Assembly: GCA_028284465.1 (NCBI GenBank)
Contig: JANQRR010000023.1
Span: forward strand, 1,894 to 65,893
Direction of reading: 5' to 3'
Length of the DNA stretch: 64,000 bases
DNA from: Gammaproteobacteria bacterium
GTDB lineage: Bacteria; Pseudomonadota; Gammaproteobacteria; JAJFKO01
The translations under genes and the position numbers were made by a program. Positions 741-60,235 of the stretch are shown here, piece after piece. Position 1 is the stretch's first letter; each line of letters begins with the position of its first letter. The notes beneath the pieces are model-generated. The model was not told the origin of the DNA. It did not search any database and saw only the letters and a list, made by a program, of their open reading frames with translations.

Positions 741-1914
741 TGAACAAAACCCAACAAAAATGGTCGTCTGGGATCTCGGCAGACGTTGTAACTACGATTG
801 CTCATACTGCACTGGTTGGATGCACTCCACAACTGCACCGTTCAATAAATTGGATCAATATAAACGGACAGCAGATTTCATTGATGGGTATTACGCAATC
901 TACGAGCAGTTTCATGCGACTAAATTCCGCCCGGTTCTCAGTTTCACGGGCGGTGAACCAGCAGTTAATCCAGACTTTTTTCCGCTCATAGAATATCTCA
1001 AAGAAGAATATCCTTACTTTGTTCTGAACCTCACAACCAATGGAACTTGGTCCAAAAGACGTGGCCAATTTTTGCTGGATAACATGGACAGTATCACTGT
1101 TTCCTATCACTGTGAAGGTAACGACAAACAACGACAGTTAGTACGTGATAACTTAGTTTGGATGCGCGAAAGAATCGCAAACAAGCACAAGCTTAAAGTC
1201 AATGTGATGATGCATGTCGATCATTGGGAAGACTGCATTGACTTGATCGAAAATGTACTCAAACCCAATGACATCAAATACATACCACGCACCATCGGAG
1301 ACGATGGACGAAACCGTTACGAATGGTTCGAAGATATGGATGGCGTCATGAGACGCACAAGTCATAAGTACACTGATGTTCAGATGGATTGGATCAAGGG
1401 ACACTGGCAACACGAAAACAAGAAAGTTGGTGACAAAACAGAACTTAAGAAATCTGACGATGGTGACGTACGTAAGATTGGTCGCATGTGCTGTGGTGGT
1501 AGATGCATGACAACTAAGGCAGTTGACAGCACCAAAGAAACTGATACCATGTTTATTCAACAATCCAACTTCAAAGGTTGGAACTGCATGGTTAACTGGT
1601 TTTTCTTACACATCGAAGAAGACAAGGATGTGGCATACCATCATCAAACATGTATGGCAAAGACGAGTGATACTCCTGAAGTTCATATTGGGCCTTTGTT
1701 GGAGCATGTTACTACTTTTAATGCTAATCGCGGCCCAATTTGCAATCTTAGTCGGAGTGACGAGTATCTTGCTTGGCTAGAAGACAAGGTGTTTCGAGAA
1801 GGCAGACCACCGACAATGATTTGTCCCAACACACATTGCGGATGTGGTATCTGTGTTGCTAAAGCCAGGACCAATGAAGATTTCGAGAGGTTAAAGGCTA
1901 AGTATGTTACCTAG
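718..1914 (+). CDS. Radical SAM protein with Cys-rich C-terminal (SPASM-like) domain
   Basis: CNYDCSYC, SFTGGEP and LTTNG motifs; C-terminal CPNTHCGCGIC. Confidence 0.88.
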   Translation: MLEYIYSDEQNPTKMVVWDLGRRCNYDCSYCTGWMHSTTAPFNKLDQYKRTADFIDGYYAIYEQFHATKFRPVLSFTGGEPAVNPDFFPLIEYLKEEYPYFVLNLTTNGTWSKRRGQFLLDNMDSITVSYHCEGNDKQRQLVRDNLVWMRERIANKHKLKVNVMMHVDHWEDCIDLIENVLKPNDIKYIPRTIGDDGRNRYEWFEDMDGVMRRTSHKYTDVQMDWIKGHWQHENKKVGDKTELKKSDDGDVRKIGRMCCGGRCMTTKAVDSTKETDTMFIQQSNFKGWNCMVNWFFLHIEEDKDVAYHHQTCMAKTSDTPEVHIGPLLEHVTTFNANRGPICNLSRSDEYLAWLEDKVFREGRPPTMICPNTHCGCGICVAKARTNEDFERLKAKYVT

Positions 1915-2401
1915 CATTGCTGAGCAAATAGCCGATTTTGTTGAACGTCGCAATTCAAGACTTCATACAACATTCCCTGATGAAGTTTATTTTGCAACCC
2001 AAAACGTGTACATGGGCGATTACAGATTTTTCGATCCCATCATAGATGCTTTACTGTTGGAGTTTGAAAATGCTGACTAGTTCCAGAAAACAAGATGTGC
2101 CTATCTTAAAAGATATACGCATCAAATATCCTGAATTCTTTGAAATAGAAGATCAAGTACATCCTGCTAAAGCAGGACATTTTGTTTGGCACGAGATTAT
2201 TATAGATCATTTGGAGAAAGAATTCAAATGAGCAAAATAAAAAAATCAATGAAAAAATTCATCGAAGGCTGTAATTCTATGACAATGCTAGAATACACCA
2301 GCACTGATATTTATTTCAAAATCAATCATCTCGTTATTGGCAATTACATCATGTATGATGCTGTTGTAACTGGTTTAGAATTGGATCTTGATAATGGGTA
2401 A
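1904..2401 (+). CDS. Array A: three coupled micro-ORFs (1904..2080, 2070..2231, 2228..2401) of the LxxEF family
   Basis: Manual translation gives C-termini IIDALLLEFENAD, IIDHLEKEFK and VVTGLELDLDNG; starts and stops overlap. Confidence 0.7.
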
Positions 2402-3449
2402 GAACCTATTGTTCGTGAACGTGAGCAAGAATACAAAAATCTTTCTTTTGCATAGCGCAGAAGCAGAACGATGTGGCCACACAGTCTACAATCTTACTGA
2501 TTTTCCAAGATCAGAACACAACACATTAAATTATGTTGAATATGTCAATAACAATTTCAAAGATTACGAGGATGCCATTAAACGCATCTTTCAAGAAAAA
2601 GACATAGACTACATTTCAACTCAGTGCGAAGTCTTGTACCCCTTGATAGATAAGCTATCGAGAGAAGGATACCCAACGATACCAATCATGGGTGGAGATG
2701 TTGACGAGCTAGTCAACAAAGAACGCTTTGCTAACTTCTGCCGTCGCATTGGTTTGCCGCAACCGGATACGTTTGCACCTACCAAGTTTGAAGAGATTGC
2801 CGACTACGATAGGCCAATCTTCATCAAACCAACAAACGGCACCGATGGCACAATCAAGCTGCATCTATCTGACGATAAGTACGCATTCTTTGATTACTGC
2901 CGCTTTCCTAGCGTTCAGACATTCATGGATACACTCGAAAAAGCAGATTACGTAGAAGAGTTTCTACGAACGCAAAACGAAATGAAAGACATGCCAAGTG
3001 GTAAAGGCATCCATGGCATTAGAGGACGACACTTAATACAAGAATGTGTGGTTACGCCAGATTACTTCTATTTCAACTTCATCGTTGATTCTGGTAAGAT
3101 TAAATTCTTAATGTCAAACAAATCCAGAATGAAAGGCAACGCAAATATCTACATGTATTTGCTGAACAATGTCGAATTGCTTGTGTTGCCTAAAGATGAA
3201 AACAATCACGCAAAGATGCGTGAGTTTGTCGGTGAGCACGTGTTCGAATCATTCATGGAACAAATCACCAAACTCATCGAACACGCCAAGGTAGAATTGT
3301 GTGGTTTTAACATGGCATTCATTCCTTGGCGAGACACATACCACATTCAAGACGTAACTTTACGCCATGGTGGCAACGCATCACTTAGATCAATGAACAC
3401 GCTTCTTAATCAGAACACTGATTATGATAGCATTTGGGAGTACGTATAA
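2394..3449 (+). CDS. ATP-grasp domain protein
   Basis: NKERFANFCRRIGLPQP, PIFIKP, LIQE and IQDVTLRHGG match the ATP-grasp motif order. Confidence 0.75.
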   Translation: MGKNLLFVNVSKNTKIFLLHSAEAERCGHTVYNLTDFPRSEHNTLNYVEYVNNNFKDYEDAIKRIFQEKDIDYISTQCEVLYPLIDKLSREGYPTIPIMGGDVDELVNKERFANFCRRIGLPQPDTFAPTKFEEIADYDRPIFIKPTNGTDGTIKLHLSDDKYAFFDYCRFPSVQTFMDTLEKADYVEEFLRTQNEMKDMPSGKGIHGIRGRHLIQECVVTPDYFYFNFIVDSGKIKFLMSNKSRMKGNANIYMYLLNNVELLVLPKDENNHAKMREFVGEHVFESFMEQITKLIEHAKVELCGFNMAFIPWRDTYHIQDVTLRHGGNASLRSMNTLLNQNTDYDSIWEYV

Positions 3450-4531
3450 TGATCATGACAGGCTGGGAAATCGAGTACTACAAAAACCAGAATGATTACA
3501 TCAAACTGTTCAATGAAGTATTGCAGCAGAAGCAAGAAACAGACATCAGTTTTTTAGAAGATCGTTTAGCCAAAATGCATGACAGAAAGTATGCAGTAGC
3601 ATGTTCTAGTGGTACAGATGCTCTGCATTTAATCATGCTCGCACTAAGAAATTATGGTGTTGTTCCTGGTGAAGAAGTTTTGGTTCCTGACTTTTCGTGG
3701 ATCTCTACAGCGTCTTGTGTCGCAATGACAGATGCTATGCCGATATTCTGTGACATTGATCTAGACAGCTACCACATGTCCCTGAACAGTATGAAACATA
3801 TGTGTGGTGGCCACACCATGGCTATCGTGTATCCCCATCTATTCGGCAACATGAGTGACACCACAGAGATTGAAGAGTGGTGTGAAAAGAAAGATCTTTT
3901 GTTTGTCGAAGATGCATGTCAATCTATTGGGGCAAGCTACAATGGACGCAAAGCAGGTAGTATTGGAATAGCCAGTGCACTGAGCTTTAACGCGAACAAA
4001 AACATCGCTGGTATCGCTGGCGGTGGTGCTATCCTGACAGATCAACAAGACATTGCTGATTACTGCCGTAAAGCTCGACAGCATGGTAATGGCGACTTCT
4101 TAGGATATAACTCTAAGATGCTGCTGTTAAACGCACGTGTGATCGACTATCGCCTGAATAAAATGCAAGAGTGGCAATTCCATAGGCAAAAGTCTGCTGA
4201 GCTTTATGATGATGCTTTGAGAGATTTGCCAGTAGTTATCCAAGGCGATAAGAACGTCAATCACAACTATCATAAGTATGTGGTGCGCTTTGAATCAAAA
4301 GAGATTCGAGACAAAGTGCAAAGGGCAATTGGTGCTGCTGTTCACTACGACAAACCACTTTCTGAAAATGCGATGTGGGAAGACATAAACCACGAAGCAG
4401 ACGAAACACCAAATGCCAAATTGGTTTGTGATACCATTCTCACGTTACCACTAAATCATTATACAGACTTTGGTGATATTATAAAAACGGCTGATACTAT
4501 AACAGATATTGTAAAGGGAAATGCCAACTAA
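3449..4531 (+). CDS. DegT/DnrJ/EryC1/StrS PLP-dependent aminotransferase
   Basis: SSGTDAL, VEDACQSIG and SFNANKN (PLP lysine) followed by GGGA. Confidence 0.93.
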   Translation: MIMTGWEIEYYKNQNDYIKLFNEVLQQKQETDISFLEDRLAKMHDRKYAVACSSGTDALHLIMLALRNYGVVPGEEVLVPDFSWISTASCVAMTDAMPIFCDIDLDSYHMSLNSMKHMCGGHTMAIVYPHLFGNMSDTTEIEEWCEKKDLLFVEDACQSIGASYNGRKAGSIGIASALSFNANKNIAGIAGGGAILTDQQDIADYCRKARQHGNGDFLGYNSKMLLLNARVIDYRLNKMQEWQFHRQKSAELYDDALRDLPVVIQGDKNVNHNYHKYVVRFESKEIRDKVQRAIGAAVHYDKPLSENAMWEDINHEADETPNAKLVCDTILTLPLNHYTDFGDIIKTADTITDIVKGNAN

Positions 4532-5624
4532 GAGTTATTGCGAAAAACCATTTACACACATACACTCCCACGCACGAGGACAGTATAAGCTGTGTTGTCA
4601 TGCTAGTGTTCATCCAAAATTGGAGAAGTACACTATCAGGACGGCACGGCCCTTTGAGTTTTTTCTGTCTGACGAGATGGAAGAAATTCGCAATGACATG
4701 CTAGAGGGCAAGGCAATCCCTGGCTGTGAATACTGCTACCAGATAGAAGAATCTGGTATGAAGTCGCCAAGACTAACTAATAGAAAATTTTCTGGTGTTG
4801 AGCCACACAGCGTTGGCGTGCAAGTAAGAATATTTGGATCTACTTGCAACCTCAGTTGCTACATGTGTTTTCCATTCAATTCATCCACAAAAAATAAAGA
4901 ATTAAAGAATATTGATACAGACATATTTGTAAAATATGATTCTGAATTCTACCAAATTGATGATGAATCCATGGCTGTATCCGTACAGGATGTTCTCGAT
5001 AACATAGAATTAATAGACTTTATTACCATTATTGGTGGCGAACCGTTTGTAATGTCTCCACATTGGGAGTTTTTGGATCGTATTCCCAAAGAGATGAGAA
5101 AGAAAATCTCTCTTAGGTATCAAACAAATCTCACTAAATTACATCACAAAAAATGGCATCTGCTTGATTATGTGAATGACTTCAAAAGTATTAAACTGTT
5201 CGTATCAGTTGATCATTTCAAAGAAAAGCTTGCTTGGATACGTTATCCAATAGATGTGAATCAATTTGAAAACAATCTCATGGAATATCATAAGTACATC
5301 GAATCAATGCACATGTGCATTGGATTGCTGAATGTGCATGACGTGCCTCAAATAGTAGATTACTACAAGAATAATTTTGGTCTGCCATTAGAATTAAAGA
5401 ACATAGTGCAACAACCACCAGAATTGTCTATTAAGAATCTGGCAGATAAACAACCAGTAATTGATATGTTCACTGAATTAAATGACGTACCAGACGTGAT
5501 CTTTCACGAATTAAATAAACCGAGAGATGAAGTAGAATATCAAAAGTTTGTAGATTACGTAAGATTACTAGATCAAAAACGAGGCACCAGCGCCAATAAA
5601 ACGTTTGGTTGGGAAATATATTAA
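4521..5624 (+). CDS. Radical SAM protein with N-terminal SPASM/twitch-like domain
   Basis: N-terminal C..PF...LCC and CEYC; CNLSCYMC; IIGGEPF. Confidence 0.88.
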   Translation: MPTKSYCEKPFTHIHSHARGQYKLCCHASVHPKLEKYTIRTARPFEFFLSDEMEEIRNDMLEGKAIPGCEYCYQIEESGMKSPRLTNRKFSGVEPHSVGVQVRIFGSTCNLSCYMCFPFNSSTKNKELKNIDTDIFVKYDSEFYQIDDESMAVSVQDVLDNIELIDFITIIGGEPFVMSPHWEFLDRIPKEMRKKISLRYQTNLTKLHHKKWHLLDYVNDFKSIKLFVSVDHFKEKLAWIRYPIDVNQFENNLMEYHKYIESMHMCIGLLNVHDVPQIVDYYKNNFGLPLELKNIVQQPPELSIKNLADKQPVIDMFTELNDVPDVIFHELNKPRDEVEYQKFVDYVRLLDQKRGTSANKTFGWEIY

Positions 5625-6643
5625 TGATTTATCCTAGATGTATGGTTGGCAGAAAGCCGTTTATAACATGCCATGGTTATGTCATGCCATGCTGCTGGCT
5701 AGAAATTCCGCGTTACGATTCTGGTGGCCAAATACGAAATGAAGATTGGGAGCTGATTGACAACATATTTTTGCGTGATGCTTTTCATCTTGAAAACAGA
5801 ACTTACAAAGAGATTGTTACTAGCGATGAATGGTTGATGGCACTGGAGCAATTGTTCCTGTTAAAATACCATCCATGCAAAATGAAATGTAATAATTTCT
5901 TCATTCATGACGGTAAAATTACTCATGATGAATTGATTATTGATCAAATGGTTTTAAATGACGAGCTGAACACTTCAGATAGTATGGACGTATTCAATAA
6001 AAGCATCGTGGACACATGGAATGTCAATGAAATACAAGTCGAATTGACCAATCGGTGTTCTTTGAAATGTTCTTATTGCCCTAGAACTATTGAAAGCTTA
6101 AAGAATGCAGATCTTCCTATTGATTGTCTGGAAGATGTTATGATGAGCAAAGCGTGGGATATCGTAGATGATGTTGGTTCATATGGTGACAGCATATTTT
6201 ATAGACACTATCACGAATTTCTTAGCATACTGGCAAAGGCCAAAGTAAAATCTTACTTTGCTCATTTTGCTGCCACTGGACGTAGCCAAGAATGGTGGGA
6301 TAAAACGATTGACTTATTTGACACAGTCATTCAAGGCGGTACGCGCGTAAGAATTTTATTTGGCATTGATGGCTTGTCAGATACGTCAAAATTGCATAGA
6401 ATAGGCCAGAATTGGGATGAGATCACGTATGCCATGAAACGCACTAGAGAGGTTGGGTGTAAGTCAATTTGGCAATTCATACCTATGAGTTTTAATGAGC
6501 ACCAAATCGAAGAAGCCGAGCAGTTAGCAAAAGAATGGGGTGTACATTTCAGGATACACACTAGCTGTCGATTCACCAAAAATGATCCAAACATGCCGAC
6601 CAATCCAAGATACCATAGGGATTTTTACGATGTCAGAAATTAG
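5624..6643 (+). CDS. Radical SAM protein with N-terminal SPASM-like domain
   Basis: GYVMPCCW and CKMKC; ELTNRCSLKCSYC. Confidence 0.85.
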   Translation: MIYPRCMVGRKPFITCHGYVMPCCWLEIPRYDSGGQIRNEDWELIDNIFLRDAFHLENRTYKEIVTSDEWLMALEQLFLLKYHPCKMKCNNFFIHDGKITHDELIIDQMVLNDELNTSDSMDVFNKSIVDTWNVNEIQVELTNRCSLKCSYCPRTIESLKNADLPIDCLEDVMMSKAWDIVDDVGSYGDSIFYRHYHEFLSILAKAKVKSYFAHFAATGRSQEWWDKTIDLFDTVIQGGTRVRILFGIDGLSDTSKLHRIGQNWDEITYAMKRTREVGCKSIWQFIPMSFNEHQIEEAEQLAKEWGVHFRIHTSCRFTKNDPNMPTNPRYHRDFYDVRN

Positions 6644-9998: not shown

Positions 9999-10029
9999 TC
10001 TGTATCTCCTGTGTTCATCCAATAATTGA

Positions 10030-10058
10030 ACAATACACTCTCTCAGACATCCCGTCAA
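10030..10058 (-). promoter_or_regulatory. Sigma70-type early promoter
   Basis: TTGACG-17 nt-TATTGT on the minus strand. Confidence 0.6.
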
Positions 10059-28902: not shown

Positions 28903-30420
28903 CTATGCAAACTCTTGTTTCAAAAACAATACAATGCTTTCGTCTTGATTAACTTGAATGTGTTTATCTATTATATCCCACATCCAGCTAGAATCTCTAT
29001 AATTATAAGCAGCATAAGCTTTATTATAAGGCTTGCCACGAATTGCAGCTTCAATTTTATAGATCATTCGAATTCTCTTCTCAACGCATTATTGATTCTT
29101 GCATATGGTACAATACTGGTTTCTATCATCGGCCAAAAAACACGATCTTCAAGATCCCAACGAAGATCCATTTTAGCACATATTCTCATTTCCGCATCGC
29201 TATATTCATACAACAAATCTTTAATTGTTTCTCTTATCTTAGGAAAATTTATCATTCTCCAAACTCTTTTTCCAACACGTCGTGAATTCTTATGTTAAAT
29301 CTGGCCGAAAGAGCATTAGCATGTAAAATACCATCCTCCACATCCCATCTTTCGTATACACTGATATTTTCTTCTTCGCGCAGCTTTGATTCAACAAGTT
29401 CAAACAACTCACCATATAATCTCATTTTCACAAAATTATAAATCATGACCAAACTCTTTTATCAAAGTATCACGAATTGGATGGTTGCTGTTTAGTTCTT
29501 TTACCCAAGATACAAAAATTTCATGACACCTATCACGAAATTCCCAAGGAATATCTTCATGAGTTGTAGCATCAGGCTTTCGTAATAAAGTTATTACTAT
29601 CGCTCGTTTAACGTTATTCATTTCTATAATCCCACAACAATTGAGATCGTATAACGTGTTCTATTTCTTCGTCTATTCTAGGCTCGATGTGATCCCAAAG
29701 CCAAAGAGTTTCATTTTGAGATGAAACTGCTACATTTAAACGATTAGATGCAGTATAAGAGTTCCGCATAGCAGCAGATTCAATCAGTTTACTGCACATA
29801 TCTGAATTTTTCATTCCGCATCGCATCCCGAACAGCATCAAGAATTTGTTCATCAGCATTGACATCAAATTTGTCATACAAAACATAACAAAATTCTTTA
29901 TCAACATCAGTGTTGCTATGAAAGGGCGAAATTTCATCGAGTCTTCTCATTACAATTTTAGTAAGTGTATCATCCTTCATACAAAAATTCACTTTCTAAA
30001 GCTAACGGAATCTGTAGCCACTGGCTTTCATTCCGAGTAAATTTTGTTAGTAAATCTTCAGAAGTACCAACACCATACTCATTCCACATTTCGCTGTTGA
30101 TGTCTAAGGTTGATGATATGTGATCACTAACGTCTGTCTCGTTGTACAAAGGCATATTTCAATCCTTCTTCAATTGTGTAGTAGCCTATCCCAAATGGTG
30201 GCCTTTCATCAGCAAACAGAGTATCATTCATGTGAGAAACAAATCGTCTAGGAGCCGCTTTATCTGAACGATAAGAAGGATCGTACAAAAGCGTGTCAAG
30301 AATTGCGCTAGTCAAGGATTTCTTCACTGAATTCGTGCTCCAATACTGTGTTGATTTGACGGAACGTTTCAGCATTAGGTATAAGTTCGCGGAGCATTTT
30401 TCCAACAAACTCATATCCAC
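28903..30420 (-). CDS. Array B: about eight coupled micro-ORFs of the LxxEF family
   Basis: C-termini IPLALESEF, VRDAMRNEKF, IRSQLLWDY, IRDTLIKEF, IHDVLEKEF, INNALRREF and IVLFLKQEF (last one is 28903..29067, translated manually). Confidence 0.75.
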
Positions 30421-30557
30421 ACGATTGATTGAACGGACGGCAGCTGTCCAACAAATCTTCTATTTCCATCATTGAATGCATCACATTACCTCAAATTCAT
30501 CAGACACATAAATACATCTGTAGCACGATCAACACAAAGATGTCAAGGGAGAGGCAC

Positions 30558-45801: not shown

Positions 45802-46790
45802 TTATACAACAGACATTGCCAAGAAGCAAATCAATGCTAGGACTATTGCTGCTATACTTAAATTCTGATACACGACTTTTTTATAATGGTCAACATGAAA
45901 ATTCTCGACTTCCAACTTTTCCATGCGATCCTGACCAAACACGTCTTGCGTTAGATGTTCGCCATAGCGATCCCTAAAATGGTTACGATGAACCAACTTT
46001 TCGTCCTGAGATTTCATTTCTTATTTGTTGCCTTATTATTTCTTCTGTGAGATTTGACATCTTTACTTGTATTTCAAACCAAACTGTAGCTTCTACGTCC
46101 AAACTAATATCAGGATGATAGTAAGGATCAACCTCAACTACACAATCGATCTTATTCTTGCACGTATAAGATGTCATTATTCATCTCGTCTTTTAACGCA
46201 TGACTTATTGTATCAGGATGAACGTCGCTTATTTTTCCATACACATGACGCCAAACTTTAGATTCTACAAAAATAGATACAAAATCTGTATTCCACGGGC
46301 GGGGAGATATTACTCGCTTTATTGTATATCGCAATCTAGCCACCAAATACTGCCACACAAACAATGATAGTAAGAATAATACCGGCCATTACAAAACCCA
46401 TTATAAAATCATGATGCATATCTTTGTAGAAATCCTCACCTAACTGTTCAAGAATTGTAAGATCGTACGGATTATCGTGCTCAAAGATAATCGGTGCATT
46501 ATTTGATTGTTGTAATTCAGCTAACGCTTCAGCATATGATTCATGCCTTACTTTGCCATGAATAGGGCTTACTATTGGATAGTTCATCATCTCACCACTA
46601 AGCTAGCAAAAAATGCCACAATAGCAATAGTAAACGCAATAACCAATATCTCGACTAAGACATCAGTTCTTTTTTCTGTTGACATGTTTTTGGGGAATAT
46701 TCTCACGCCAGAACATGTGCGAACTATGATTAAAGCCACAGACAAAAATACACTCAAAAGAGTGTACCATATGATTTTAATCAGTGTCAT
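45802..46790 (-). CDS. Coupled small ORFs: membrane proteins (45802..46017, 46336..46590, 46587..46790) and LxxEF-family variants (array C: 45983..46177, 46152..46364)
   Basis: Overlapping starts and stops; C-terminal IRQQIRNEI and ISHALKDEM. Confidence 0.55.
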
Positions 46791-47300: not shown

Positions 47301-47306
47301 CGATGG

Positions 47307-47667: not shown

Positions 47668-47696
47668 ACTATGACGCATCTAGACAGGCTTGTCAA
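47668..47696 (-). promoter_or_regulatory. Sigma70-type promoter
   Basis: TTGACA-17 nt-CATAGT. Confidence 0.6.
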
Positions 47697-48676
47697 CAAA
47701 ATTATTTCTTAATTCCTCTATGATCTTAGATAGCAACAGAACATCATGATATATCATGGGCATTAGTTCATGCTTAGACAATCTACCAATTTGTGCCTCA
47801 ACACTATTTTCATATTTGCTTGCAAATGCAGTATAAACTTCAGTGTCTAACACATTATGTATTTGATTCTTTAAAAGAGATCTAGATGGTGATTCATTCA
47901 TCAAAATCTATCTCCAATGCATTTATGATACCGTCTATTCTACCAAACAAACGCAAATCATCGCTGATTATAGCATCCCATGCGGCACAAATCTTACTAT
48001 AAGCATCAGGATTTTTAGCAATTATTTGATTAAAAATGCTATCATCGAAACGCTTTTTCGCGTTGAATTTAATATCACTCATCAAATTCTTCTTTCAAGA
48101 ATTCAAGCACATCAGGCAAACGACCAAACAATGTCATGTCATCATTCCAGCCACAATTTAAGAATCCGTCATCGACATTTGTATCTGTATATGCTTCAGT
48201 ACCAGCAACAGCATGAAACACCATTCCATCAACCAAACCATGAACAGCGTCCGAGATAATTTTTTTATGCACAAAATTGTTCATTTTGTAATTGTTCCCT
48301 AATTTGCTTCAGTGCTGTTCCATCAACAACTGCTGGTTCCAATTTTCCATCAGATAGCACATCATTTTCTATACCAAGCGAAATGCCGTTGTGTGTTTCT
48401 GCTTGATCATACATATTCTCATCCAAAATTTCAAACATTTCGTCTGAAATATGATCATTTATTATGATACGCACTCAAAATCTCCAATCTTAATTGTTGC
48501 CTGATTATTGATGCTTTGCTGCCTTCATTGTTGAGAATTATTCCGTAGTTCCATCCAGTCAATCTAAATTTATGAAGAATACGCATACGCAAACCATCAT
48601 CCACAAATTCGTGTTTAACGGACGCATGAAACACTTCATTATCTGTTAACCGTTCTATCTTATTACACGCCATCAT
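47680..48676 (-). CDS. Array D: five coupled micro-ORFs of the LxxEF family
   Basis: C-termini IRQQLRLEI, IREQLQNEQF, VLEFLKEEF, IINALEIDF and IIEELRNNF. Confidence 0.75.
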
Positions 48677-49108
48677 TTAATCACCATGCAGAAAGTTTCT
48701 GTCGTCAAGTGCGTTTTTGATGAGCCAATTACGACTATGGATCATCTTCATAATATCCTGCAACAGATCAACCTTTATCTCAGCTTCTTGAGCTTTCAAG
48801 TCGATCTTAAGCAATTCAGAATCGCCGTCAAGAATGTCTTTAATATCTGATTTTAGGATGGTGCGATCCGGCATTTCCCAGCCAAACTGATCAGCAACCT
48901 CTTGCGTTGGATTGATCAGAAATTCGTTCTTCTCTGATCGCATACGCTTGTACAAAAATTTGGCCTTAGCTATCTCTTTACGTGCGTCTATTAGCATCTT
49001 GTAGTACTTGGCGTGTAATTTTGGGATATCTCTCGACTGATCCCCTAAACCAATCTCATTGATTGGTGCATCATTATTCCATTCATTAATTATATCTTCA
49101 GAGTTCAT
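48677..49108 (-). CDS. uvsY: Recombination mediator UvsY
   Basis: IPKLHAKYY, ILKSDI...DGD and IHSRNWLIKNA; next to uvsW. Confidence 0.88.
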   Translation of the reverse strand: MNSEDIINEWNNDAPINEIGLGDQSRDIPKLHAKYYKMLIDARKEIAKAKFLYKRMRSEKNEFLINPTQEVADQFGWEMPDRTILKSDIKDILDGDSELLKIDLKAQEAEIKVDLLQDIMKMIHSRNWLIKNALDDRNFLHGD

Positions 49109-49788
49109 GAAATTCCTTCTTTAATTCTTGTTGTATATTGTTTTCAATAATGTAATCAATAGCATACTCTACTTGATTACGCACAATTACCATTGTTCGC
49201 GTTTCATATTCTTCGTATATAGGAGCCATCATTAGAGCATGGTTTCTACGGACAATATTTTCTGATAATTTGTTATTCAATTCTATCATCGAAACTCTGC
49301 CCTTAAATATTCCAAAATTTCATTCTTTTGATTATAAGCTCTTCTTGGTTGTTTTCCACGAAACCACAAAGGCGGCAAAGCTCTTAATGGTCCTTTCTCA
49401 ACAGGAACATTATACCACAACAATTTTTGTATTTTAATATCCACACGCCTAGACAGATTTTCGATTGAAATCATTTTGTAATTTCTCTGTTACTGGAGCC
49501 CACACCCTTTGATCTGCAATTTCTCTATGTCGAGTAGCATCACTTACTGAATTGCGTACATTATATCTCACAATCTCTTCTAATATACAATTGGGATTCC
49601 ACCAACAAACATCTGTCAGTGTTTCTCTTAGTCTTCTATTATGAATAGAACTCATCTTCCAAAGCTCCCTTAATACCAAACAGAATACCATCCACAAGTT
49701 CCATGTACCAATAAAATTCCTGAGTTGGAGGAACTTCGTCTGTCGGTATATCCCGACTTACTTTACGGACAATTTTGTTTTTCAGCAT
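49098..49788 (-). CDS. Array E: four coupled micro-ORFs of the LxxEF family
   Basis: C-termini IKGALEDEF (49639..49788, manual), VTEKLQNDF, ILEYLRAEF and IQQELKKEF. Confidence 0.75.
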
Positions 49789-51662: not shown

Positions 51663-51719
51663 AAAAGTTCAAAAAATGTCAAAAAAGTGGTTGACAGCGA
51701 AATTTGAAATTTGTATAAT
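51661..51719 (+). promoter_or_regulatory. Perfect consensus sigma70 promoter with phased A-tract UP element
   Basis: Three A6 tracts at a 10-bp period, then TTGACA-17 nt-TATAAT (51691-51719). Confidence 0.9.
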
Positions 51720-51758
51720 GAACTTAGGAACACAATTAGTGCGTCACTTGTGAACAGA

Positions 51759-52825
51759 TCACGATAGATCAGTGAACCAATAGTCACTGCTGATATCCAT
51801 TAGCAACTGGTCATATGCCAGATTACTTACTTGAAATATTTCTGGTAGTGTTTCAGATAATGTTACATCACTAGTATTTCTAATGTTTCTAGCTAGTTCA
51901 CGTTCTAGTTTTTCAACTATATGTTCGTTTTTTAATTCATAAGTTAGTTCATCCATTAGTTTGTTCCTTTAGTTCATTTCTTAAAGTTGCATATATTTGA
52001 TCATAAGATAAATTACTAATTCGTATCTTATTAGATAATCTAGTTCTATAATCTGAATTACCTATAATACCTAATATATCACCTTCTAGAATTTCATATA
52101 TATTATTACCTAGTTTTTCCATTAGTTCAATCCTCTAGTTCTTCTTTTAGTGCATCAACTAGTGAATCAAATAACATTACATTAACTTTAATATATAAAC
52201 CTAATATTGCTCTAACGTGTCCACTAGGTGTTAGATCATTCACTAGTTTTCTTTCTAGTTCATGTAATATTATACGTTGCATTAGTTCACTCCAAAGTTA
52301 ATTGCACGATGGTTGCTTGCTGCTAAAACCATTCATGAAATCATCACGAATAGCAGAAGTAATGTTGAATTGGACATCACTTGGCAAATTACGTAAACCC
52401 CTAAGAGGCAAATCATCAATGTTAGTGGCAAACAATGCTTTACCTACATAGAATTGTACCGTTGCACTTATTCGAAGTTTGAAATCAAGACTCGACATAG
52501 AATTCTTCCCTCAGTGCAATTTGAATTCGATCACTGTCATAAGTAGTGAAGTGTTGATATAATCCATTTACCTTTAACCGTGGATGTACAATATTGTACA
52601 ATTCTCTTATAATATTACTGTTGCAATAAGTAATAACTTTTTGTTTAAGTATGTATCTCATCGTTCGAACTCTTGCAGTAATTGATTTACTATGGTATGG
52701 TGTTTTGTTCTATTTTGAAGTGCTCCAGGTATCCCTGTATCTGGCAAATTACACTCAAAACACATGTCTATGCAGTCTTGTTCTGTTTTGTAGTAAATAG
52801 CACGAGCGAAAGCATTCAAAATCAT
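51759..52825 (-). CDS. Array F: six micro-ORFs of the LxxEF family
   Basis: 52658..52825 IVNQLLQEF; 52485..52661 IQIALREEF; 52298..52498 ITSAIRDDF; 52127..52282 LVDALKEEL; 51949..52122 IYATLRNEL; 51759..51956. Confidence 0.7.
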
Positions 52826-52851
52826 ATCAATTCTTTCTTGTTAGGAGATCC

Positions 52852-53424
52852 ATGAAGAAAAAGACCAAGTACTATATCAACAACGATCAGTTCTATGAAG
52901 CATTGGTGGATTTTCTTCAGAAATGTGATGAAGCAGATGCCAATGGAGTGGAGATCCCCAGAGTACCAGAATTCATTGGTGAATGCTTCTTACTCTTGGC
53001 TAAGAACATTGCAAAGGCCCCGAATTGGTCACGCTATCCCTTCATTGAAGACATGCAGATGGACGCTGCACTCAACTGTCTTAAGTACATACGCAATTTC
53101 AAACCTACCCGCATAGATGCAGAAACCGGCAAGATTGTCAAGTCTAGACCCTTCAGCTATTTCACTCAGTACGTCCACAACACCTACAAACAGACCATCA
53201 AAGAAGAAAAGAAGAACTTGTACAAGCGATACAAGACGTATCAGTCGTTCCAGATCGAGGTTCAGCTTTCTGGTGAAGTAGGGGCTTGTCCACCAGAGCA
53301 AAATGAGATAAGCAACAAGTACATAGAACACTACGAGGAATCGATTGAGCGTGAGAAGCAGCGGAAACGTGAGAACCGCAGTAAGAACACGAACTCAATC
53401 AGCAACTTCTTTGAGGATGACTAA
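52852..53424 (+). CDS. gp55: Late-transcription sigma factor gp55
   Basis: YINN..FY, PEFIGECF..A, NCLKYIRNF and PFSYFTQ. Confidence 0.93.
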   Translation: MKKKTKYYINNDQFYEALVDFLQKCDEADANGVEIPRVPEFIGECFLLLAKNIAKAPNWSRYPFIEDMQMDAALNCLKYIRNFKPTRIDAETGKIVKSRPFSYFTQYVHNTYKQTIKEEKKNLYKRYKTYQSFQIEVQLSGEVGACPPEQNEISNKYIEHYEESIEREKQRKRENRSKNTNSISNFFEDD

Positions 53425-54811
53425 TGCGAACATTAAGTAGAACTGTAGATAAAGTTAGATATCGATTAGAAGATGTTCCAGTGGAAAGATGCTTTAATAT
53501 GGCCTTTGAACAGAATAAAGATACTATGTTCAATGGAGAACACAAAAAATTAAATAATATGTTTTCTTCCATGTATAGATATCTAATAAATGTGGAATTC
53601 AATGATGTTTAGAAATTCATTTGCTCAAGCAATAGAAGATAAGGGTGATCTTGGTGCAATTGATCGAGTTTGGAAATTGGTTTCAATACTAAGAAGCCAA
53701 GAGCCTTTTAGTCAGGGTAATGATGATGAAGGTAACACACCGCATCAAATAGGTGTATACTCACAATTAGAGGAAGAGTTTGATGCTGCGATCTTCCGTG
53801 AAAGCTAGAATAGAATATCGTGCATATCCTGGTAGTGTACATGGCGATGGTTACTGTCATTATAAAGTAATGGTAACTGTAAGTGCTGTGTTTTCTGAGT
53901 TGCCATATACTAGTTATGCAATTGAAGAGGCTTTGCAATATGAGTTTAGTATATAGAAGTTTTAGATTCAAAATGGAATGTGTGATTGATGATAATGCTA
54001 TTAATAAATTAGCGAAATCAAATCTGTCAAATCTTTGTGATGAATTCATTGATGATGGTTTGACATCTTGGTATGCTATTAGGGATTTGTTGGAAGATGA
54101 ATTCGAAGCTGAGCAAAAGAGTGAAGATCTTAATCGACGACAAAATCGTCGGTGATCCTATTCATGAATGTGCATTTGAATCTGATGAAATAGTTGAACC
54201 TAACGTTTATAGAATGTTAGTGTTGCCAGATATGTTGAAAGTTGATAATATTCGAGACGCGTTAAGGGAAGAGTTTGAAGATGGAGATTAAGCGTGAAGA
54301 ATTGCTGGCAGACATAGAAGGTGCTATAGATTCAGATTCAATGACTGAGTTGATCATTATGTACAAAATGGATCTTTATGATCGCCTTCAGAGAGAAACA
54401 CTCACTGGTCTTTGGGCTGCTATAGAAAGACACTTGAAAAGAGAATTCGATGAGAACGAATAGACTTAGACTGGTAAAGGGACCAGAAGGTGCATGGATA
54501 GAGCAGTTGTGGAAATTGCCAAATAATAAAGAAGAATGGCGTACACTTGAAATTGTTCAGGCACACGAAGTCTATCCTGATAAGTATGAAGATCCAAAGA
54601 AGAAGGCGCGATTCAAATGGTAAGTAGTGATTTCAGACAATTGATAGAACAAAAAGCAGATGATCATGCTATTATTGCTTCTCGACGAATTCATTATTTT
54701 ACACATTGTAATATTAAAGATAAATTTGATGCTATGAATATAATGCATGTATACGAGGCAGTTCGTCAAACACTTCGAAAGGAATTGAATGAAGATAGCA
54801 TTTCTCTGTGA
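53424..54811 (+). CDS. Array G: seven LxxEF-family micro-ORFs plus one unrelated micro-ORF
   Basis: C-termini YLINVEF, VYSQLEEEF, IEEALQYEF (53783..53956, manual), IRDLLEDEF, IRDALREEF, IERHLKREF and VRQTLRKEL. Confidence 0.75.
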
Positions 54812-55832
54812 CACACATTGGGGCGCAAGAGGCGACCACAAAGAATTACGCCAGTCAATGGCGGATTTTCACGATGACATTTTCTTTCCAGAAATTGAAG
54901 ATCGCGGTGTTGAGTACATAATCCACCTTGGCGATCTAGTTGATCGTAGAAAATACATCAATTTCCAAACACTCAGCATGATGAATCATCACTTCATCAA
55001 TCGAATCAAGATTCCGATGGACATCATTGCTGGCAATCACGACACATATTATAAGAACCATAGCCACGTCAATGCATTGAACACGTTGCTAGACGACAAA
55101 AATTATCAAATCGTTAAGTACATCAATCCAGCTGAAACCGAAATTGATGGTATTAAGTTTCTGTATCTGCCATGGATCAATGAGCTGAATGCAGATCAGA
55201 CAGCCGATTTGATGGCGAATAGTGATGCGTCAATTGTTATGGGTCACCTTGAAATTGCTGGATTTCAGATGATTCGAGGCATGTTGTGCCCACATGGCCT
55301 AGACTTTAAATCTTTCCGAAGATTCGCAAAAGTTTATACTGGTCATTTCCACATAAAATCTAGCCGTGATAACATCACTTATTTGGGTTCTCCGTATGCC
55401 ATGAATTGGTCGGAGGCTGAAGATCCACATGGATTTCATATCTTTGATACCAAAACTCTTGAACTAGAGTATATCGAGAATCCGCATAGTATGTTCGTCA
55501 AGCTTTTCTACGATAAAGACACAAGCCATACAGATATTCCAGATGTTTCAAAAAAATGGGTGAAGTTAATCGTGAAGGAAAAGCCTGACGCATACGTGTT
55601 TGATAATTACGTTAAGGCTTTGCACGATCAAGATCCTTATGAGATGCGTGTTGTGGAACCCATTACGCAAGTTAGTGAAGACATTGTTGTGTCAGAAGCG
55701 GACGACACAAACGTGATCATAGATAAGACAATAGAAGCTCGTCTTGATTTGGATAAGGATCAGCGAGAAGAATTGAAACGTATTATGGCTGGTCTGTACC
55801 GAGAAGCCTCAGATTTGATTGTGGAGCGATGA
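54789..55832 (+). CDS. gp47: Recombination endonuclease subunit gp47 (Mre11/SbcD-like)
   Basis: DTHWG, GDLVDRR, GNHD and GHFH metallophosphoesterase motifs. Confidence 0.95.
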   Translation: MKIAFLCDTHWGARGDHKELRQSMADFHDDIFFPEIEDRGVEYIIHLGDLVDRRKYINFQTLSMMNHHFINRIKIPMDIIAGNHDTYYKNHSHVNALNTLLDDKNYQIVKYINPAETEIDGIKFLYLPWINELNADQTADLMANSDASIVMGHLEIAGFQMIRGMLCPHGLDFKSFRRFAKVYTGHFHIKSSRDNITYLGSPYAMNWSEAEDPHGFHIFDTKTLELEYIENPHSMFVKLFYDKDTSHTDIPDVSKKWVKLIVKEKPDAYVFDNYVKALHDQDPYEMRVVEPITQVSEDIVVSEADDTNVIIDKTIEARLDLDKDQREELKRIMAGLYREASDLIVER

Positions 55833-56832
55833 CGACAAAAAAATTACATGAGTTTAGAACGTATTACGTGATGGATGATTTTCAAGTTGCTGCTTATGAT
55901 TCAACTCAAATGGCAGAAGTAACAAAAGCAATATATGATAATCTAGCACGTAAAATGTCAGAAATGTTGGTTCAAGAAAGTATGATTGCGTTTGAGCAGG
56001 ATTATGACATGGTGAATGCGCAACGAAGATTTATTGGAAAGCTCGACATCAAGAAAATCAGAGAAGCTTTGCCACCAGCTATGACAAGTTCTGGTGTGGG
56101 AATTGGGACAATGACGCCATCTTACACTAGCACTACATTACCGTTTTATAAGCAACCTGATGAGGAATGGGTTGACGATGAACCATATGAAGATGATAAT
56201 TTTGAAAGTGAAGAAATGACTGCATTGCAGAGAAATCTTAACGAAATATTAGAAAGGAAAAAGAATGAAGCTAAATGAATTTCGGGCATGGCTCGATGGA
56301 TTTACTCACTCAATCAAAGAAGCACCAACGCCGCAACAGTGGCTTCAAATCAAAGAAAAGCTTGACAACATCAATCCCGATCAGGTAGTAGAGTATCTAC
56401 CTTATTATACACATCCAGTTAATACTTGGCCAAAATGGTACGTGTCACATTACTCTACAGGAACATCTGATGCAGCAAGCCAATACAAATCAGCAATCAC
56501 TTCCGATATCACTGACGGAACAACGACCACTAGTAGCGTTAGACTTTCTGGGGGGCAATTGTCCGGTACAAGCTGAAGGAACAATTCTCGGTAAGCGATT
56601 CTATTTTAGGGCCAGGGGTGAGCACTGGTCCATAGAAATTCATCCAACTGCCAAAGGTGAGTATACAGATTGGCCATCGACACAGATTGTGAATGGTCTG
56701 GCTTCTGGTACGTGGTACTATGATGAGCCTTACGGAACTTGGCCAGATGCAGGTTGGATGCCACAAAAAGATGCTGTAGAATGCATTAATCGTGCAGCCA
56801 AAATGTATCAGGATGAAATGAACAGCTTATGA
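55829..56832 (+). CDS. Three hypothetical proteins (55829..56278, 56265..56576, 56470..56832)
   Basis: Overlapping ORFs between gp47 and gp46. Confidence 0.55.
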
Positions 56833-56996
56833 TGATGAACTTTGAAGTTACTCAAAAAGTGTATATTGGTCCATTGCATGCAACGTATGAAAATTTACAA
56901 GAACATGGAGCTTGGTATAACTACTTTGTACCGATAAGTATTTGGTCAATAACAAATCAAATTGAAGCTGAAGTGAAAAAAGAGTTTGAATGTTAA
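56829..56996 (+). CDS. LxxEF-family micro-ORF (55 aa) coupled to gp46
   Basis: Manual translation ends IEAEVKKEFEC. Confidence 0.65.
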   Translation: MMMNFEVTQKVYIGPLHATYENLQEHGAWYNYFVPISIWSITNQIEAEVKKEFEC

Positions 56997-58690
56997 TACT
57001 GAAAAATGTAACAATAAAAAACTTTCTATCTACTGGTCAAAATCCACTCAAGTTTGATCTTCACAAGCATAAGACTACGCTCATGTCAGGCGACAATGGA
57101 GCTGGCAAATCTACACTTGTAGATGCTATCTGCTTTGCATTATTCGGTAAAGCGTTCAGAAATATCAATAAACCACAGCTAATTAATATCGTCAATAAAA
57201 AGCAATGTGTGGTTACAATCGACTTCTCAGTCGGCAACAATGAATTCCACATTGTTCGTGGTATGAAGCCCACAATTTTCCAAATATTCAAGAATGGCGA
57301 TCTGATCGATCAGGATGCAGCCGCACGTGACTATCAGGAGATGCTAGAGCGTGATATCCTGAACATGTCCTACAATGCGTTTTGTCAGGTTATTGTGCTC
57401 GGTAACGCCAACTGGACAGCCTTTATGTCTCTGTCTGCTGGTGATCGCCGTAAGGTGCTAGAAGACATGCTAGGCATTGAAATCTTCACTGTCATGAGCA
57501 CGTTGCTTAAGGAACAGCAAAATAATCTTAGAAATGATATCAAGGATATTGACGCCAACATCAAAGTGTTGGAAAACACCATTGAGCTGAACGAGAAGCA
57601 CAAGGCAAGTTTACTTCAGCACACAGAAGAAGCTATACAAGAGAAGAAAAACAAGATAGCGGATTTTGAAAAGCAGTTAGTGCCAGCACGCGAAAAGCGT
57701 GATGAACTAGCTTCTAAGATGAGCGACATAGAAAAGGTATTATCAAAAGAAGAATCCACTAAAGATGAAATGTCTGGGCTAGTAGATGAGGTAAACAAAA
57801 TTGAGCATGCAGAAAAACAAGCCACAAAGGACATCAAGTTTTACGTCAATAATTCTTCGTGCCCGACTTGCAAGCGGGAAATTGATCCCAAGTTCAGAAC
57901 CGTTGCGAAGCAAGAGAGAGAAGCACACCTTGCCAAAATCGGCGAACGTAAGAATCTACACACAACACAAATAGATGTTCTGACTGGTCGCCTAAACAAG
58001 TTTAAGAAGCTTGGCAAAGGACTGGCACAACTATCAAGCCAACATCAGGACGTGGTGCTCGACATTCACACGTGGACCAGTGCAATTACTCAGTTGCATG
58101 AAGATATTGAGTCCTTACGTGAAGAGAAGCCACCGTTAGATCCACATGACTACCGAGCAGACTTAGATGTAGAATTGAAGAAAAAGTCTGACTTGATAGA
58201 TAAGAAAGATGTGCAATCTGTTGCTTTAGATATGCTTAAAGATGATGGCATCAAAGCACAGATCATCAAACAATACATTCCGGTTATCAATACACTCGTT
58301 AATCGCTACCTTGAACGCTTGAACTTCTTTGTCAAGTTTCATTTGAATGAGAAATTTGAGATGGAAATCAAGGCGTTACACAAGGATGACATGAGTTATG
58401 ATAACTTCAGTCAGGGCGAAAAGATGCGCATTGACTTGTCTATCTTGTTCACTTGGCGCGACATTATCCGACAGAAAAAAATGAATTCATGCAATCTTCT
58501 GATTCTTGATGAGATCATGGATTCGTCACTAGATCCACAAGGCACTGAGGATTTCTTGGAAGTTATTAGGGCATTGACGCCAGACAACAACATCTTTATT
58601 ATCAGCCATAAAAGAGATCAGATCAGTGACAAATTCGACAACGTGTTGGAGATTGTCAAGAAGAAAAACTTTTCGAGGATCAAGCGATGA
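56990..58690 (+). CDS. gp46: Recombination ATPase gp46 (Rad50/SbcC-like)
   Basis: GDNGAGKST, CPTC zinc hook, FSQGEK, LILDE and IISH. Confidence 0.96.
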   Translation: MLILKNVTIKNFLSTGQNPLKFDLHKHKTTLMSGDNGAGKSTLVDAICFALFGKAFRNINKPQLINIVNKKQCVVTIDFSVGNNEFHIVRGMKPTIFQIFKNGDLIDQDAAARDYQEMLERDILNMSYNAFCQVIVLGNANWTAFMSLSAGDRRKVLEDMLGIEIFTVMSTLLKEQQNNLRNDIKDIDANIKVLENTIELNEKHKASLLQHTEEAIQEKKNKIADFEKQLVPAREKRDELASKMSDIEKVLSKEESTKDEMSGLVDEVNKIEHAEKQATKDIKFYVNNSSCPTCKREIDPKFRTVAKQEREAHLAKIGERKNLHTTQIDVLTGRLNKFKKLGKGLAQLSSQHQDVVLDIHTWTSAITQLHEDIESLREEKPPLDPHDYRADLDVELKKKSDLIDKKDVQSVALDMLKDDGIKAQIIKQYIPVINTLVNRYLERLNFFVKFHLNEKFEMEIKALHKDDMSYDNFSQGEKMRIDLSILFTWRDIIRQKKMNSCNLLILDEIMDSSLDPQGTEDFLEVIRALTPDNNIFIISHKRDQISDKFDNVLEIVKKKNFSRIKR

Positions 58691-59364
58691 ATTTGCATGT
58701 TTGGCCAGCAACAGCAAGATCTTTTGGTAGAGTTACGCATTTGGTGCGTCCAATAACTTTAAATAGACTTGAAGTAAAAAGTAAAGATATGGTTCTTGAA
58801 CGTAAAATTGTTTATCCAATGCAACAATTGAATGATTTTTGGTCATATGAAATTCTGAATTTAATTCGTGATAAATTGAAGAAGGAATTTTTGTGATGGC
58901 AGACATTTCAGATGTGAGGCGTAGGTTGCTTGAAAAAGCAAGGTTGAGTGTTCAAAAAAACGCTCATTATAATATGTGCTGGTTAGGAGTTTATCCAGTT
59001 AAAAGAAGTCTTTCAAGAAATTATGACGTTGTTATACAGGAATTATATAATAAAGAAACATGGAAAAAGATAGTGCGCTATGAATAAAGTTTGGAGTGTA
59101 TATAATTCTGTTGCTGGTTTTGCTGTGGAAAACAGATTAGATTTTGTTAGATCGCCAGGAAAATACGAATACCAATCTAATAATGATGGTGTGTTGGGGC
59201 TTATACGTAAAACGCTACTAGAGAAAACCGCTAATCCAAATAATTTTTCATTTAACCATATGCCGGTTCCCATGAGATGGAATGTAATTGAATTGGCCAT
59301 GCTTACTGAATGGGGCGATAGACACGCACACACAGAAATTTGGTTAAATGAGATACAAATATGA
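58687..59364 (+). CDS. Three coupled micro-ORFs; the first is an LxxEF member
   Basis: 58687..58896 ends IRDKLKKEFL; also 58893..59087 and 59080..59364. Confidence 0.6.
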
Positions 59365-59870
59365 GTGAAGAATTAGTACGTGAATTGGTTCCTGGTAATG
59401 ATCCAATTCTCAAAGAAGAAACACCAAAGTTCGATTTTCTCGATCCGCCTATGGACCCAATTGAATTAGCTCACACGCTCGCACAAAGCTGCTTGAAGTA
59501 TGAAGGGTTAGGATTGTCAGCACCACAGATTGGTTTGCCATATCGCGCCTGCATCATCAAAGCAGATCCTATGATTTGCATGTTCAATCCTAAGATTGTT
59601 GGTGAATCAATGGGAGCTGAATATGGCGAAGAAGGTTGCTTGTCGTTTCCAAATCTGATAATCAAAGTTAAGCGTGCACAAGTCATACGTGTGCGCTTCA
59701 CTCAACCAAACTTTGAAGTGAAAACAGAGCGCTTTGAAGGAATGACGGCTAGAATCATTCAGCATGAAATGGATCATTTAGATGGTATTACGTTTCATAC
59801 AAGGGCTACTTCCTACCACCTCGAACAAGCGAAAAAATCTAAAAGAAAGCTTGAAAAAAATAGTGTATGA
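59361..59870 (+). CDS. def: Peptide deformylase
   Basis: GLGLSAPQIG, EGCLS and QHEMDHL motifs. Confidence 0.95.
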   Translation: MSEELVRELVPGNDPILKEETPKFDFLDPPMDPIELAHTLAQSCLKYEGLGLSAPQIGLPYRACIIKADPMICMFNPKIVGESMGAEYGEEGCLSFPNLIIKVKRAQVIRVRFTQPNFEVKTERFEGMTARIIQHEMDHLDGITFHTRATSYHLEQAKKSKRKLEKNSV

Positions 59871-60235
59871 GAAATTTGAAAAAAATCCAATGTCGCGTGT
59901 TAGAGATGATTGTTTGTACATTAAAAATGATGTGATGAAAAACACTTTGGATAAAGTGCCCAGAGATATGTATTTTCAAATAACTGAAGAATTAATGGAA
60001 GAATTTTGGCATGGATTACACATTAGGATCTAAAATGCATAAATGGCTTCATCTTGATCAGGTGAATGCATTTAAAGACGCGTTTCGTAGTCCAGAAGAA
60101 AGGCTAAAGTGGCGAGAATGCTTTTCAGAGGGAAGCACTAATATTTACGCACGTGTGCATTCAGAGCTGAAAAAAGATGAAAAATTTGTTAACAAGGGGG
60201 TTGCGGTCTTCAGGAAACCTGCTATACATAAGTAG
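59863..60235 (+). CDS. Two LxxEF-family micro-ORFs (59863..60033, 60011..60235)
   Basis: ITEELMEEF; VHSELKKDEKF. Confidence 0.6.

Follow-up and report, generated by a model that had tools for sequence, protein, structure and literature searches.

The window analyzed here, a stretch of 64,000 nucleotides, comprises bases 1894-65893 of contig C45 (69.8 kb) in a 47-contig, 2.6-Mb assembly and is part of a T4-like myovirus contig. It holds arrays of small open reading frames (ORFs), median length 62 aa, whose products end in a common tail, (I/V)xxxLxx(E/D)(F/L), situated mostly 1-4 residues ahead of the stop codon. These microproteins form a real, protein-level, lineage-specific family of paralogs that has been tandemly amplified and has strongly diverged, and that has one C-terminal amphipathic helix in common. 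With ~66-73 copies in ~174 kb of phage DNA, the family accounts for roughly a fifth of the called genes.

Arrays of microprotein genes in the window

Members were recognized with an 11-column motif matrix, which was first trained on C45 alone and then retrained, at a threshold of 9 bits (8 bits for membership lists). At 8 bits or more, the matrix returns 36 plausible members in the window (window position equals C45 position minus 1893); it missed a further ORF, 53883-54155, because the motif in its ending, LLEDEF, lies 16 residues from the end. A first-pass annotation of the window had described nine arrays of such genes, and back-to-back small ORFs with the tails that it quoted are present in every one of them. 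Its array extents need one addition, a member at 30308-30484 (-) with the ending VLEHEF just outside the range given. Several ORFs within its ranges, those at 54450-54623, 58893-59087, 59080-59364, and 60011-60235, do not belong to the family, nor does 59361-59870, which encodes a peptide deformylase; 53424-53612 and 51759-51956 carry variants of the motif that are weak and fall under the matrix threshold.

The first array (1904..2401, plus strand) consists of three genes, 1904-2080, 2046/2070-2231, and 2186/2228-2401, with the tails LLLEF, LEKEF, and LELDL and matrix scores of 16.3, 17.3, and 10.5. It is flanked by a radical SAM gene and a 351-aa gene, and its first and third members share 23% identity over 56 aa (E 3e-5). 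Antisense to the flanking late genes, and immediately downstream of the major capsid protein gene, lies an array of nine (28903..30484, minus strand; scores 12.2-21.5), whose genes, 28903-29067, 29064-29255, 29252-29452, 29436-29621, 29614-29814, 29789-29992, 29970-30155, 30127-30327, and 30308-30484, overlap one another by a few bases. Two weaker members at 45983..46364 (-) have the tails IRNEI and LKDEM (scores 14.5 and 15.7) with the motif 8-9 residues from the end. Downstream of UvsY are five genes at 47680..48676 (-; scores 10.9-16.8), of which 47894-48085 and 48075-48284 match at 43% over 23 aa, and between UvsY and UvsW there are four at 49098..49788 (-; scores 11.2-17.5). The ORFs of 51759..52825 leave no gaps on the minus strand, five members at 51949-52825 (scores 14.7-20.6) being adjoined by the sub-threshold variant 51759-51956. 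Upstream of the gp47-like nuclease gene, the plus-strand array 53424..54811 (scores 14.9-24.0) contains members at 53590-53808, 53780-53956, 53883/53973-54155, 54073/54097-54291, 54275/54281-54463, and 54617-54811. Three single members complete the set on the plus strand: 56829..56996, between the gp47-like and gp46-like genes (tail VKKEFEC, score 13.8); 58687..58896, directly after the gp46-like gene (tail LKKEFL, score 18.1); and 59782..60033, after the peptide deformylase gene (start 59782 or 59890; tail LMEEFWHGLHIRI, score 18.5).

Enrichment of the motif and its protein-level nature

LxxEF occurs within the last 20 residues of 21 of the 530 window ORFs of at least 35 aa in six frames. Twenty of these are in arrays; the remaining one, 15321-15473 (-), is antisense within the gene for a 507-aa protein and is probably a chance occurrence. 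The enrichment extends to two further contigs of the assembly, C18 and C4. Strict LxxEF in the last 14 aa is found in 44 of the 1,172 ORFs of C45, C18, and C4 (21/471, 19/589, and 4/112, respectively), compared with 14 of 10,657 ORFs on the remaining 44 contigs. With only C45 as its training set, the matrix selects, at 9 bits or more, 24/652 ORFs on C18 and 7/121 on C4 versus 8/11,938 background ORFs, and the retrained matrix selects 40 (C45), 32 (C18), and 9 (C4) ORFs versus 14/11,938 on the other 44 contigs. Eighty-two ORFs score at least 8 bits, nine of which (C18 20582, 53515, 64490, and 65404; C45 2603, 26012, 46743, and 67164; C4 7841) were excluded before alignments as overlapping larger genes, being on the wrong strand, or being much longer. 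Among genes called with a simple purpose-made scorer, 66 of 314 carry the motif, all of them among the 170 of at most 110 aa. The distance from the motif Phe to the stop is 1-4 residues in 55 of 83 matrix matches, with a range of 0-13. A full-length hidden Markov model iterated on the genome's ORFs regained its 39 training sequences and only 3 others, and therefore the motif matrix was used.

The recurrence lies in the protein and not in the DNA, because the codons of the motif vary and long DNA repeats are missing. In a Phe-anchored alignment, the codons differ from gene to gene: in the 66 called members the motif Leu is encoded by TTA (27), TTG (19), CTT (7), CTA (3), CTG (2), and CTC (1), the Glu by GAA (25) and GAG (20), and the Phe by TTT (31) and TTC (16). 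No DNA repeat longer than 39 nt was found in the arrays, those present having 62-82% identity, and Tandem Repeats Finder detected no gene-unit tandem repeat there, returning just short low-score rows at 51927-51966 (period 16) and, just outside the arrays, at 51661-51688. For 60 of 66 members, the annotated frame scores best on codon usage under a model trained on genes of at least 200 aa with stops ignored.

The motif is also specific to small proteins and to their C termini. It is present in 53 of 110 small genes that are coupled to a downstream gene and in 13 of 60 that are uncoupled, compared with 0/58 uncoupled large genes and 0/86 coupled large genes; the idea, raised in the first-pass annotation as a challenge to its own proposal, that the motif is as common at the 3' ends of other coupled genes can thus be set aside. 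Away from the C terminus, the motif matches 6 of 37,574 windows within large proteins and 4 of 5,261 within small ones.

Conservation, paralogy, and predicted fold

Across the 73 members aligned, mean column identity is 10%, and conservation is restricted to positions -8 to 0. The information is held by Ile at -8, Ala or Gln at -5, Leu at -4, Arg or Lys at -3, Glu or Asp at -1, and Phe or Leu at 0; every other position, counted from either end, has at most 0.5 bits. Positions -8, -4, -1, and 0 hold 2.2-2.9 bits, values that are inflated as the matrix picked the members by their motif, versus at most 0.5 bits from -11 upstream and at most 0.39 bits in N-anchored columns. In the 82 ORFs, position -8 is Ile in 69, Val in 9, and Leu in 4, and position -5 is Ala in 23 and Gln in 14; an acidic residue occupies -1 in 85% of the 73 members. 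The conservation thus concerns residue identity, beyond hydrophobicity alone. The members have no membrane-like stretch, are low in Gly and Pro, and have net charges of -12 to +9 (median -1), with no alternation of net charge seen along the arrays. Cysteine is absent from 39 of the 73 and occurs once in 28, so that 67 have none or one.

The first-pass annotation held that the proteins share the C-terminal motif and no other identity, a view that must be revised. All-against-all blastp gives 10 pairs at E<=0.01, mostly neighbors, and four of these are nearly full-length (for example, 40% over 50 aa, E 3e-10). Full-length similarity between adjacent genes shows that these are tandem paralogs, diverged to ~10-30% identity, rather than unrelated bodies joined to a tag. 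The rest of the earlier description holds: the family is expanded and strongly diverged, its C-terminal amphipathic helix is constant, and its body varies.

Structure prediction indicates that the members are all-helical proteins of ~40-80 aa each. In the AlphaFold model of 29067-29255, made with the family alignment, helices span residues 4-26, 29-46, and 50-62 (pLDDT 76.7), and a second member is modeled with helices at 2-26 and 33-58 (pLDDT 85.8). The motif helix is the highest-confidence part of both models; the arrangement of the helices in space is uncertain, with pTM of 0.39 and 0.40, respectively. Foldseek returned 0 matches in the Protein Data Bank and best E values of 5.3 and 6.0 among viral predicted structures. 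VIA-align against 48,161 chains gave a best Z of 5.3, and because its top rows were all generic long coiled-coil helices, a folded-back hairpin cannot be claimed.

Setting in a T4-like phage genome

Pfam identifies a set of T4-type genes in the window: large terminase (17260-18900), tail sheath (18973-21462), portal (22167-23879, E 2e-157), UvsW (49840-51273, plus strand), a gp47-like phosphoesterase (54789-55832), and a gp46-like SMC/ABC ATPase (56990-58690). Pfam also recognizes UvsY (48677-49108, minus strand) and the gp45 clamp (63042-63707, gp45-slide_C). The gene at 52852-53424 (+), to which Pfam gave no match, we presume to be gp55-like from gene order. The peptide deformylase gene at 59361-59870 (+; Pfam E 4e-34) is phage-encoded and sits amid microprotein genes. 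Two very large proteins of 1,255 and 1,053 aa, encoded at 31427-38355 (+), have no Pfam match and by their position are probably tail fibre or baseplate-distal proteins.

Two minus-strand arrays begin 51 nt (49788-49840) and 26 nt (52825-52852) from the divergent UvsW and gp55-like genes, and their promoters must therefore lie within neighboring coding regions. This divergent layout of arrays and core genes is preserved in a related contig, L001, described below. A perfect sigma-70 consensus (TTGACA, 17 nt, TATAAT) at 51691-51719 (+) points antisense through the entire minus-strand array 51759-52825 and toward the gp55-like gene at 52852, and could be the promoter of that gene or of an antisense transcript.

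A complete relative of 176 kb is matched by 14 of 33 called genes on C4, 59 of 156 on C18, and 39 of 125 on C45, with one cross-contig duplicate. Because these matches are complementary, we infer that the three contigs represent one phage genome of ~174 kb; C18 encodes polymerase, a DnaB-type helicase, gp32, and a baseplate protein. This phage DNA occurs within a bacterial bin, at a G+C content of 0.385-0.408 versus ~0.38 for the bin, and its presence there may reflect mis-binning or a host link. A coral-metagenome run may be the source of the DNA. The nearest named phages, at less than 50% portal identity, are a Stenotrophomonas phage and Synechococcus phages, and megablast of 47000-60500 against 50,697 phage records found no DNA-level match.

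Homologs and distribution in relatives

Database searches were in keeping with the earlier statement that no named family is recognizable. For 39 members, Pfam gave no family at E<=0.01 (two lone weak rows had E 0.024 and 0.054), and PHROGs matched a single member to an unannotated group, phrog_24803 (E 3.1e-4). A tblastn search of two members against the 50,697 phage records at E<=1 returned no match, a word-indexed query of member 54097-54288 against 5.8 billion clusters retrieved only the member itself, twice, and the ESM Atlas gave no usable match. The 73-member profile had five matches at E<=0.001 among 1.84 billion representatives, in a search of low power in which most true members fall below threshold; two are members from this phage, and three are ~1,000-aa tandem-repeat proteins, taken as summed chance matches.

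Relatives were scanned at loci around UvsW and the capsid gene, together with one complete genome. The sole relative found with the family is the IMG/VR contig L001/L091, whose UvsW is 69% and capsid protein 91% identical to those of the window. L001 has eight motif ORFs. Six are situated between UvsY and UvsW and two ahead of the gp47-like gene, both of them places where the window also has arrays. The six, at 9037-10030 (-), are built of four-residue xQVx units encoded by 12-nt tandem repeats (~8-12 copies each) that are nested in a gene-length 173-nt repeat, an expansion that may be a route for new members. The L001 motif ORFs end in QLMDDFE, QIMDDFK, and similar sequences. By blastp, 23 larger ORFs of L001 match this phage, whereas none of its eight motif ORFs matches a window member at E<=1e-3.

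Elsewhere the motif is at background, with 5 matches in ~6,957 ORFs of 79 other UvsW loci and 11 in 5,574 ORFs of 79 other capsid-protein loci. The complete 176-kb relative, run through the same pipeline, has the motif in 0 of 1,102 ORFs, and none of its 109 called small genes has any common tail; four further records, including two complete genomes (capsid protein 81-86% identical), gave no motif match, so that even a complete relative with an 86% identical capsid protein is without the family. The stretch from UvsY to gp46 in four relatives contains no arrays: three have 0-1 small gene, and L014 has four after the gp46-like gene, all free of the motif. A search with UvsW against metagenome contigs found no closer relative, and a conserved 32-mer of the capsid gene led to 14 metagenome loci, none of them close, with the motif in 0 of 677 ORFs. 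As far as sampled, the family is thus restricted to a narrow lineage, within which its content turns over completely with the ending kept.

Discussion

Tandem duplication in variable regions between conserved core genes expands the family, and the copies then diverge almost to saturation while selection preserves one element, the amphipathic helix, whose consensus (I/V)xx(A/Q)L(R/K)x(E/D)(F/L) ends 1-4 residues ahead of the stop. Comparison of these sequences suggests that the C-terminal helix serves all members as a common interaction module, by which they bind a shared partner or each other, and that the bodies diversify under host conflict; whether this is right we regard as an even call. 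On this account, the constant helix would connect every member to the same partner, whether a hub of the host or the phage or the helices of its fellow members, and the variable remainder would provide a different second specificity in each copy. The members would then be accessory host-takeover or counter-defense proteins, steadily gained and lost. An interaction module is suggested because residue identity, including that of the acidic residue, is kept in this helix alone across the bodies found in the window and in L001. The takeover or counter-defense role is suggested because the genes lie amid replication, recombination, and late-transcription genes and because their content is wholly different between two related phages. 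Diversification of the bodies under host conflict has been argued likewise for the internal proteins of T-even phages (PMC3012670).

Several points weigh against this proposal. No partner of the helix was identified, and none of the tools used showed binding. The conserved Ile, Leu, and Phe could be mere core residues of a small helical fold, whose arrangement is uncertain in both models (pTM 0.39-0.40), and the information in the motif columns is inflated by the way in which members were picked. A Shine-Dalgarno-like 4-base word precedes only 31 of 66 members versus 91 of 144 large genes, and start positions are uncertain for several members. As to expression, the sole sequencing run with this DNA is the coral-metagenome DNA run, kept as contigs, and no RNA run is listed. 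Finally, the status of the three contigs as a single phage depends on their complementary matches to the complete relative.

A bolder form of the proposal, which we think rather unlikely, is that the ~70 microproteins constitute a combinatorial library in which the same helix attaches each to a single hub and its own hypervariable body recruits, blocks, or mimics a different target. The hub might be, for instance, a scaffold of the phage or one of the host's machines (protease, chaperone, polymerase, or nucleoid protein), and this modular adaptor or decoy system would be renewed by tandem duplication and, in L001, by expansion of the 12-nt repeats.

The gp45 sliding clamp was considered as a partner. 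The C-terminal tails of T4-type polymerase and late-transcription proteins bind gp45, and in this phage the tails of the polymerase on C18 (SMDGFWE) and of the gp55-like protein at 52852-53424 (SISNFFEDD), which we take to be PIP-box-like, are loosely similar to the microprotein motif, sharing a hydrophobic-acidic element near the C terminus. The two adjacent aromatic or hydrophobic residues that we take to define the clamp-tail pattern are not in the motif, however; the microproteins have Glu or Asp (at -1, in 85% of the 73) where the tails have the first of two aromatics (FW, FF), and their motif is predicted to be helical and spans 9 residues. Co-folding of gp45 (63042-63707) with member 54097-54288, each as an alignment, scored 0.01 against a mark of 0.32, a "no answer" that is evidence neither way. 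A CbbQ/CobS-like AAA protein, located together with the polymerase among C18 810-3266 and 36654-37847, ends in DTIPF, a tail that presumably resembles those of single-stranded DNA-binding proteins.

The main rival to a shared interaction helix is that the motif is a fold determinant only, its Ile, Leu, Glu, and Phe being the best-aligned core or capping residues of paralogs that have no shared partner and each have their own function or none. We think this possible without favoring it. Both models are all-helical with the motif helix most confident, as it would predict, and the frequent small residue at -5 (Ala in 23 and Gln in 14 of 82) suits tight helix packing. Moreover, a fixed terminus is trivially easier to align than middles of variable length, so the contrast between helix and body is exaggerated. 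The other helices need core positions too, however, and residue identity is kept in none of them (at most 0.5 bits); moreover, the preference for Ile at -8 (69 versus 9 Val and 4 Leu) and for an acidic residue at -1 exceeds the needs of burial. The L001 members, with very different repeat-built bodies, have the same ending.

Distinctly less probable is that the helix is a sorting or turnover signal that tags many unrelated cargoes for one machine, such as a protease that would degrade them at a set time or the capsid, from which they would be injected. The terminal position of the motif and the high diversity of the bodies fit such a signal, and there is a precedent: according to PMC3012670, the internal proteins of T-even phages are diverse small proteins with a single short capsid targeting sequence in common, which counter defenses and co-evolve with hosts. 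The family here resembles them in its very diverse small proteins, one short terminal element, and otherwise divergent bodies. It differs in that their element is N-terminal, with few genes per phage, whereas here there is a C-terminal helix in ~70 genes and no N-terminal targeting sequence was found in the 73 members; most arrays stand amid replication and recombination genes, not head genes, and no link to the capsid was seen. The distance of 0-13 residues between Phe and stop argues against recognition of a free C terminus. We also know of no precedent for ~70 different cargoes, which counts against a sorting tag.

That the microproteins form a substrate library, in which a constant follower sequence on precursor peptides is read by a modifying enzyme, was a suggestion of the first-pass annotation that we now consider highly improbable. 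A constant recognition element joined to a variable remainder does recall precursor libraries, and the three members at 1904-2401 lie within a radical SAM gene cluster at 21-8253, whose proteins could be such enzymes. Just 3 of ~37 window members adjoin radical SAM genes, however, and members are scattered amid replication and recombination genes; the radical SAM proteins all fall below the NCBIfam peptide-maturase cut-off; and the members are predicted folded helices of which 67 of 73 have 0 or 1 Cys, so that there is no core rich in modifiable Cys. The cluster, on the plus strand, encodes five radical SAM proteins (21-740, 718-1914, 4521-5624, 5609-6643, and 7111-8253), together with a PseC/LegC-like sugar aminotransferase (3449-4531) and a weak acetyltransferase-like ORF (6630-7121). 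The protein of 4521-5624, which the aminotransferase adjoins, scores 242 bits with an NCBIfam twitch-domain model versus a cut-off of 170. From its gene content, the cluster looks like a phage-borne module for sugar or nucleotide-sugar modification.

Scarcely credible, finally, is a nucleotide-level signal in place of a protein motif, be it a promoter, a recombination sequence, or the ribosome-binding site of the following gene. In its favor, the codons at polar positions -3 to -1 are purine-rich, GAG makes up 44% of the motif Glu codons versus 21% genome-wide and could partly serve the ribosome-binding site of the following gene, and coupling to a downstream gene is seen for 53 of 66 motif genes. 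Against it, the motif is missing from all coupled large genes, whereas 13 motif genes are uncoupled; the residues at the strongest positions are hydrophobic and their codons vary; DNA repeats do not exceed 39 nt at 62-82% identity; and promoter-like and terminator-like sites are at shuffle level (46 versus a mean of 52.8 and 9 versus 10.2).

The arrays can be compared with other variable gene sets. In PMC4122927 and PMC2839356, the hyperplastic regions of T4-type phages are described as holding variable small ORFs of unknown function that lie between conserved core blocks and differ among related phages, and the arrays occupy the places of such genes. The same sources describe PeSLs, intergenic promoter/stem-loop DNA cassettes that flank unrelated ORFs. 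The present genes are different: they abut or overlap, no recurrent intergenic promoter and stem-loop motif of the PeSL type was found in the arrays, and the common element is in the protein. The family has a further likeness to more distant systems. Lineage-specific multigene families of large DNA viruses comprise many tandem paralogs per genome that diverge fast, and precursor-peptide libraries join one constant element to hypervariable remainders; the microproteins are alike in their tandem paralogs or constant element, but here no modifying enzyme is linked. To our knowledge, no tailed phage has ~70 copies of one microprotein family, and a search of the full-text literature, in which coverage is thin for subscription journals, found no description of such a phage family.

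Overall, the family is unusual among the accessory ORFs of T4-type variable regions in its copy number and its one constant helix. Small genes in these regions are usually seen as unrelated orphans, whereas here about a fifth of the genes are one family, and ~70 puzzling genes reduce to one question, the binding target of the helix. A peptide of 10-15 residues represents the whole family and is a ready bait, and the close relative without the family is a natural comparison. If the helix does dock to a hub, the family would be a compact natural system in which many binders share one handle, as well as a clear case of evolution by gain and loss in a phage accessory genome.

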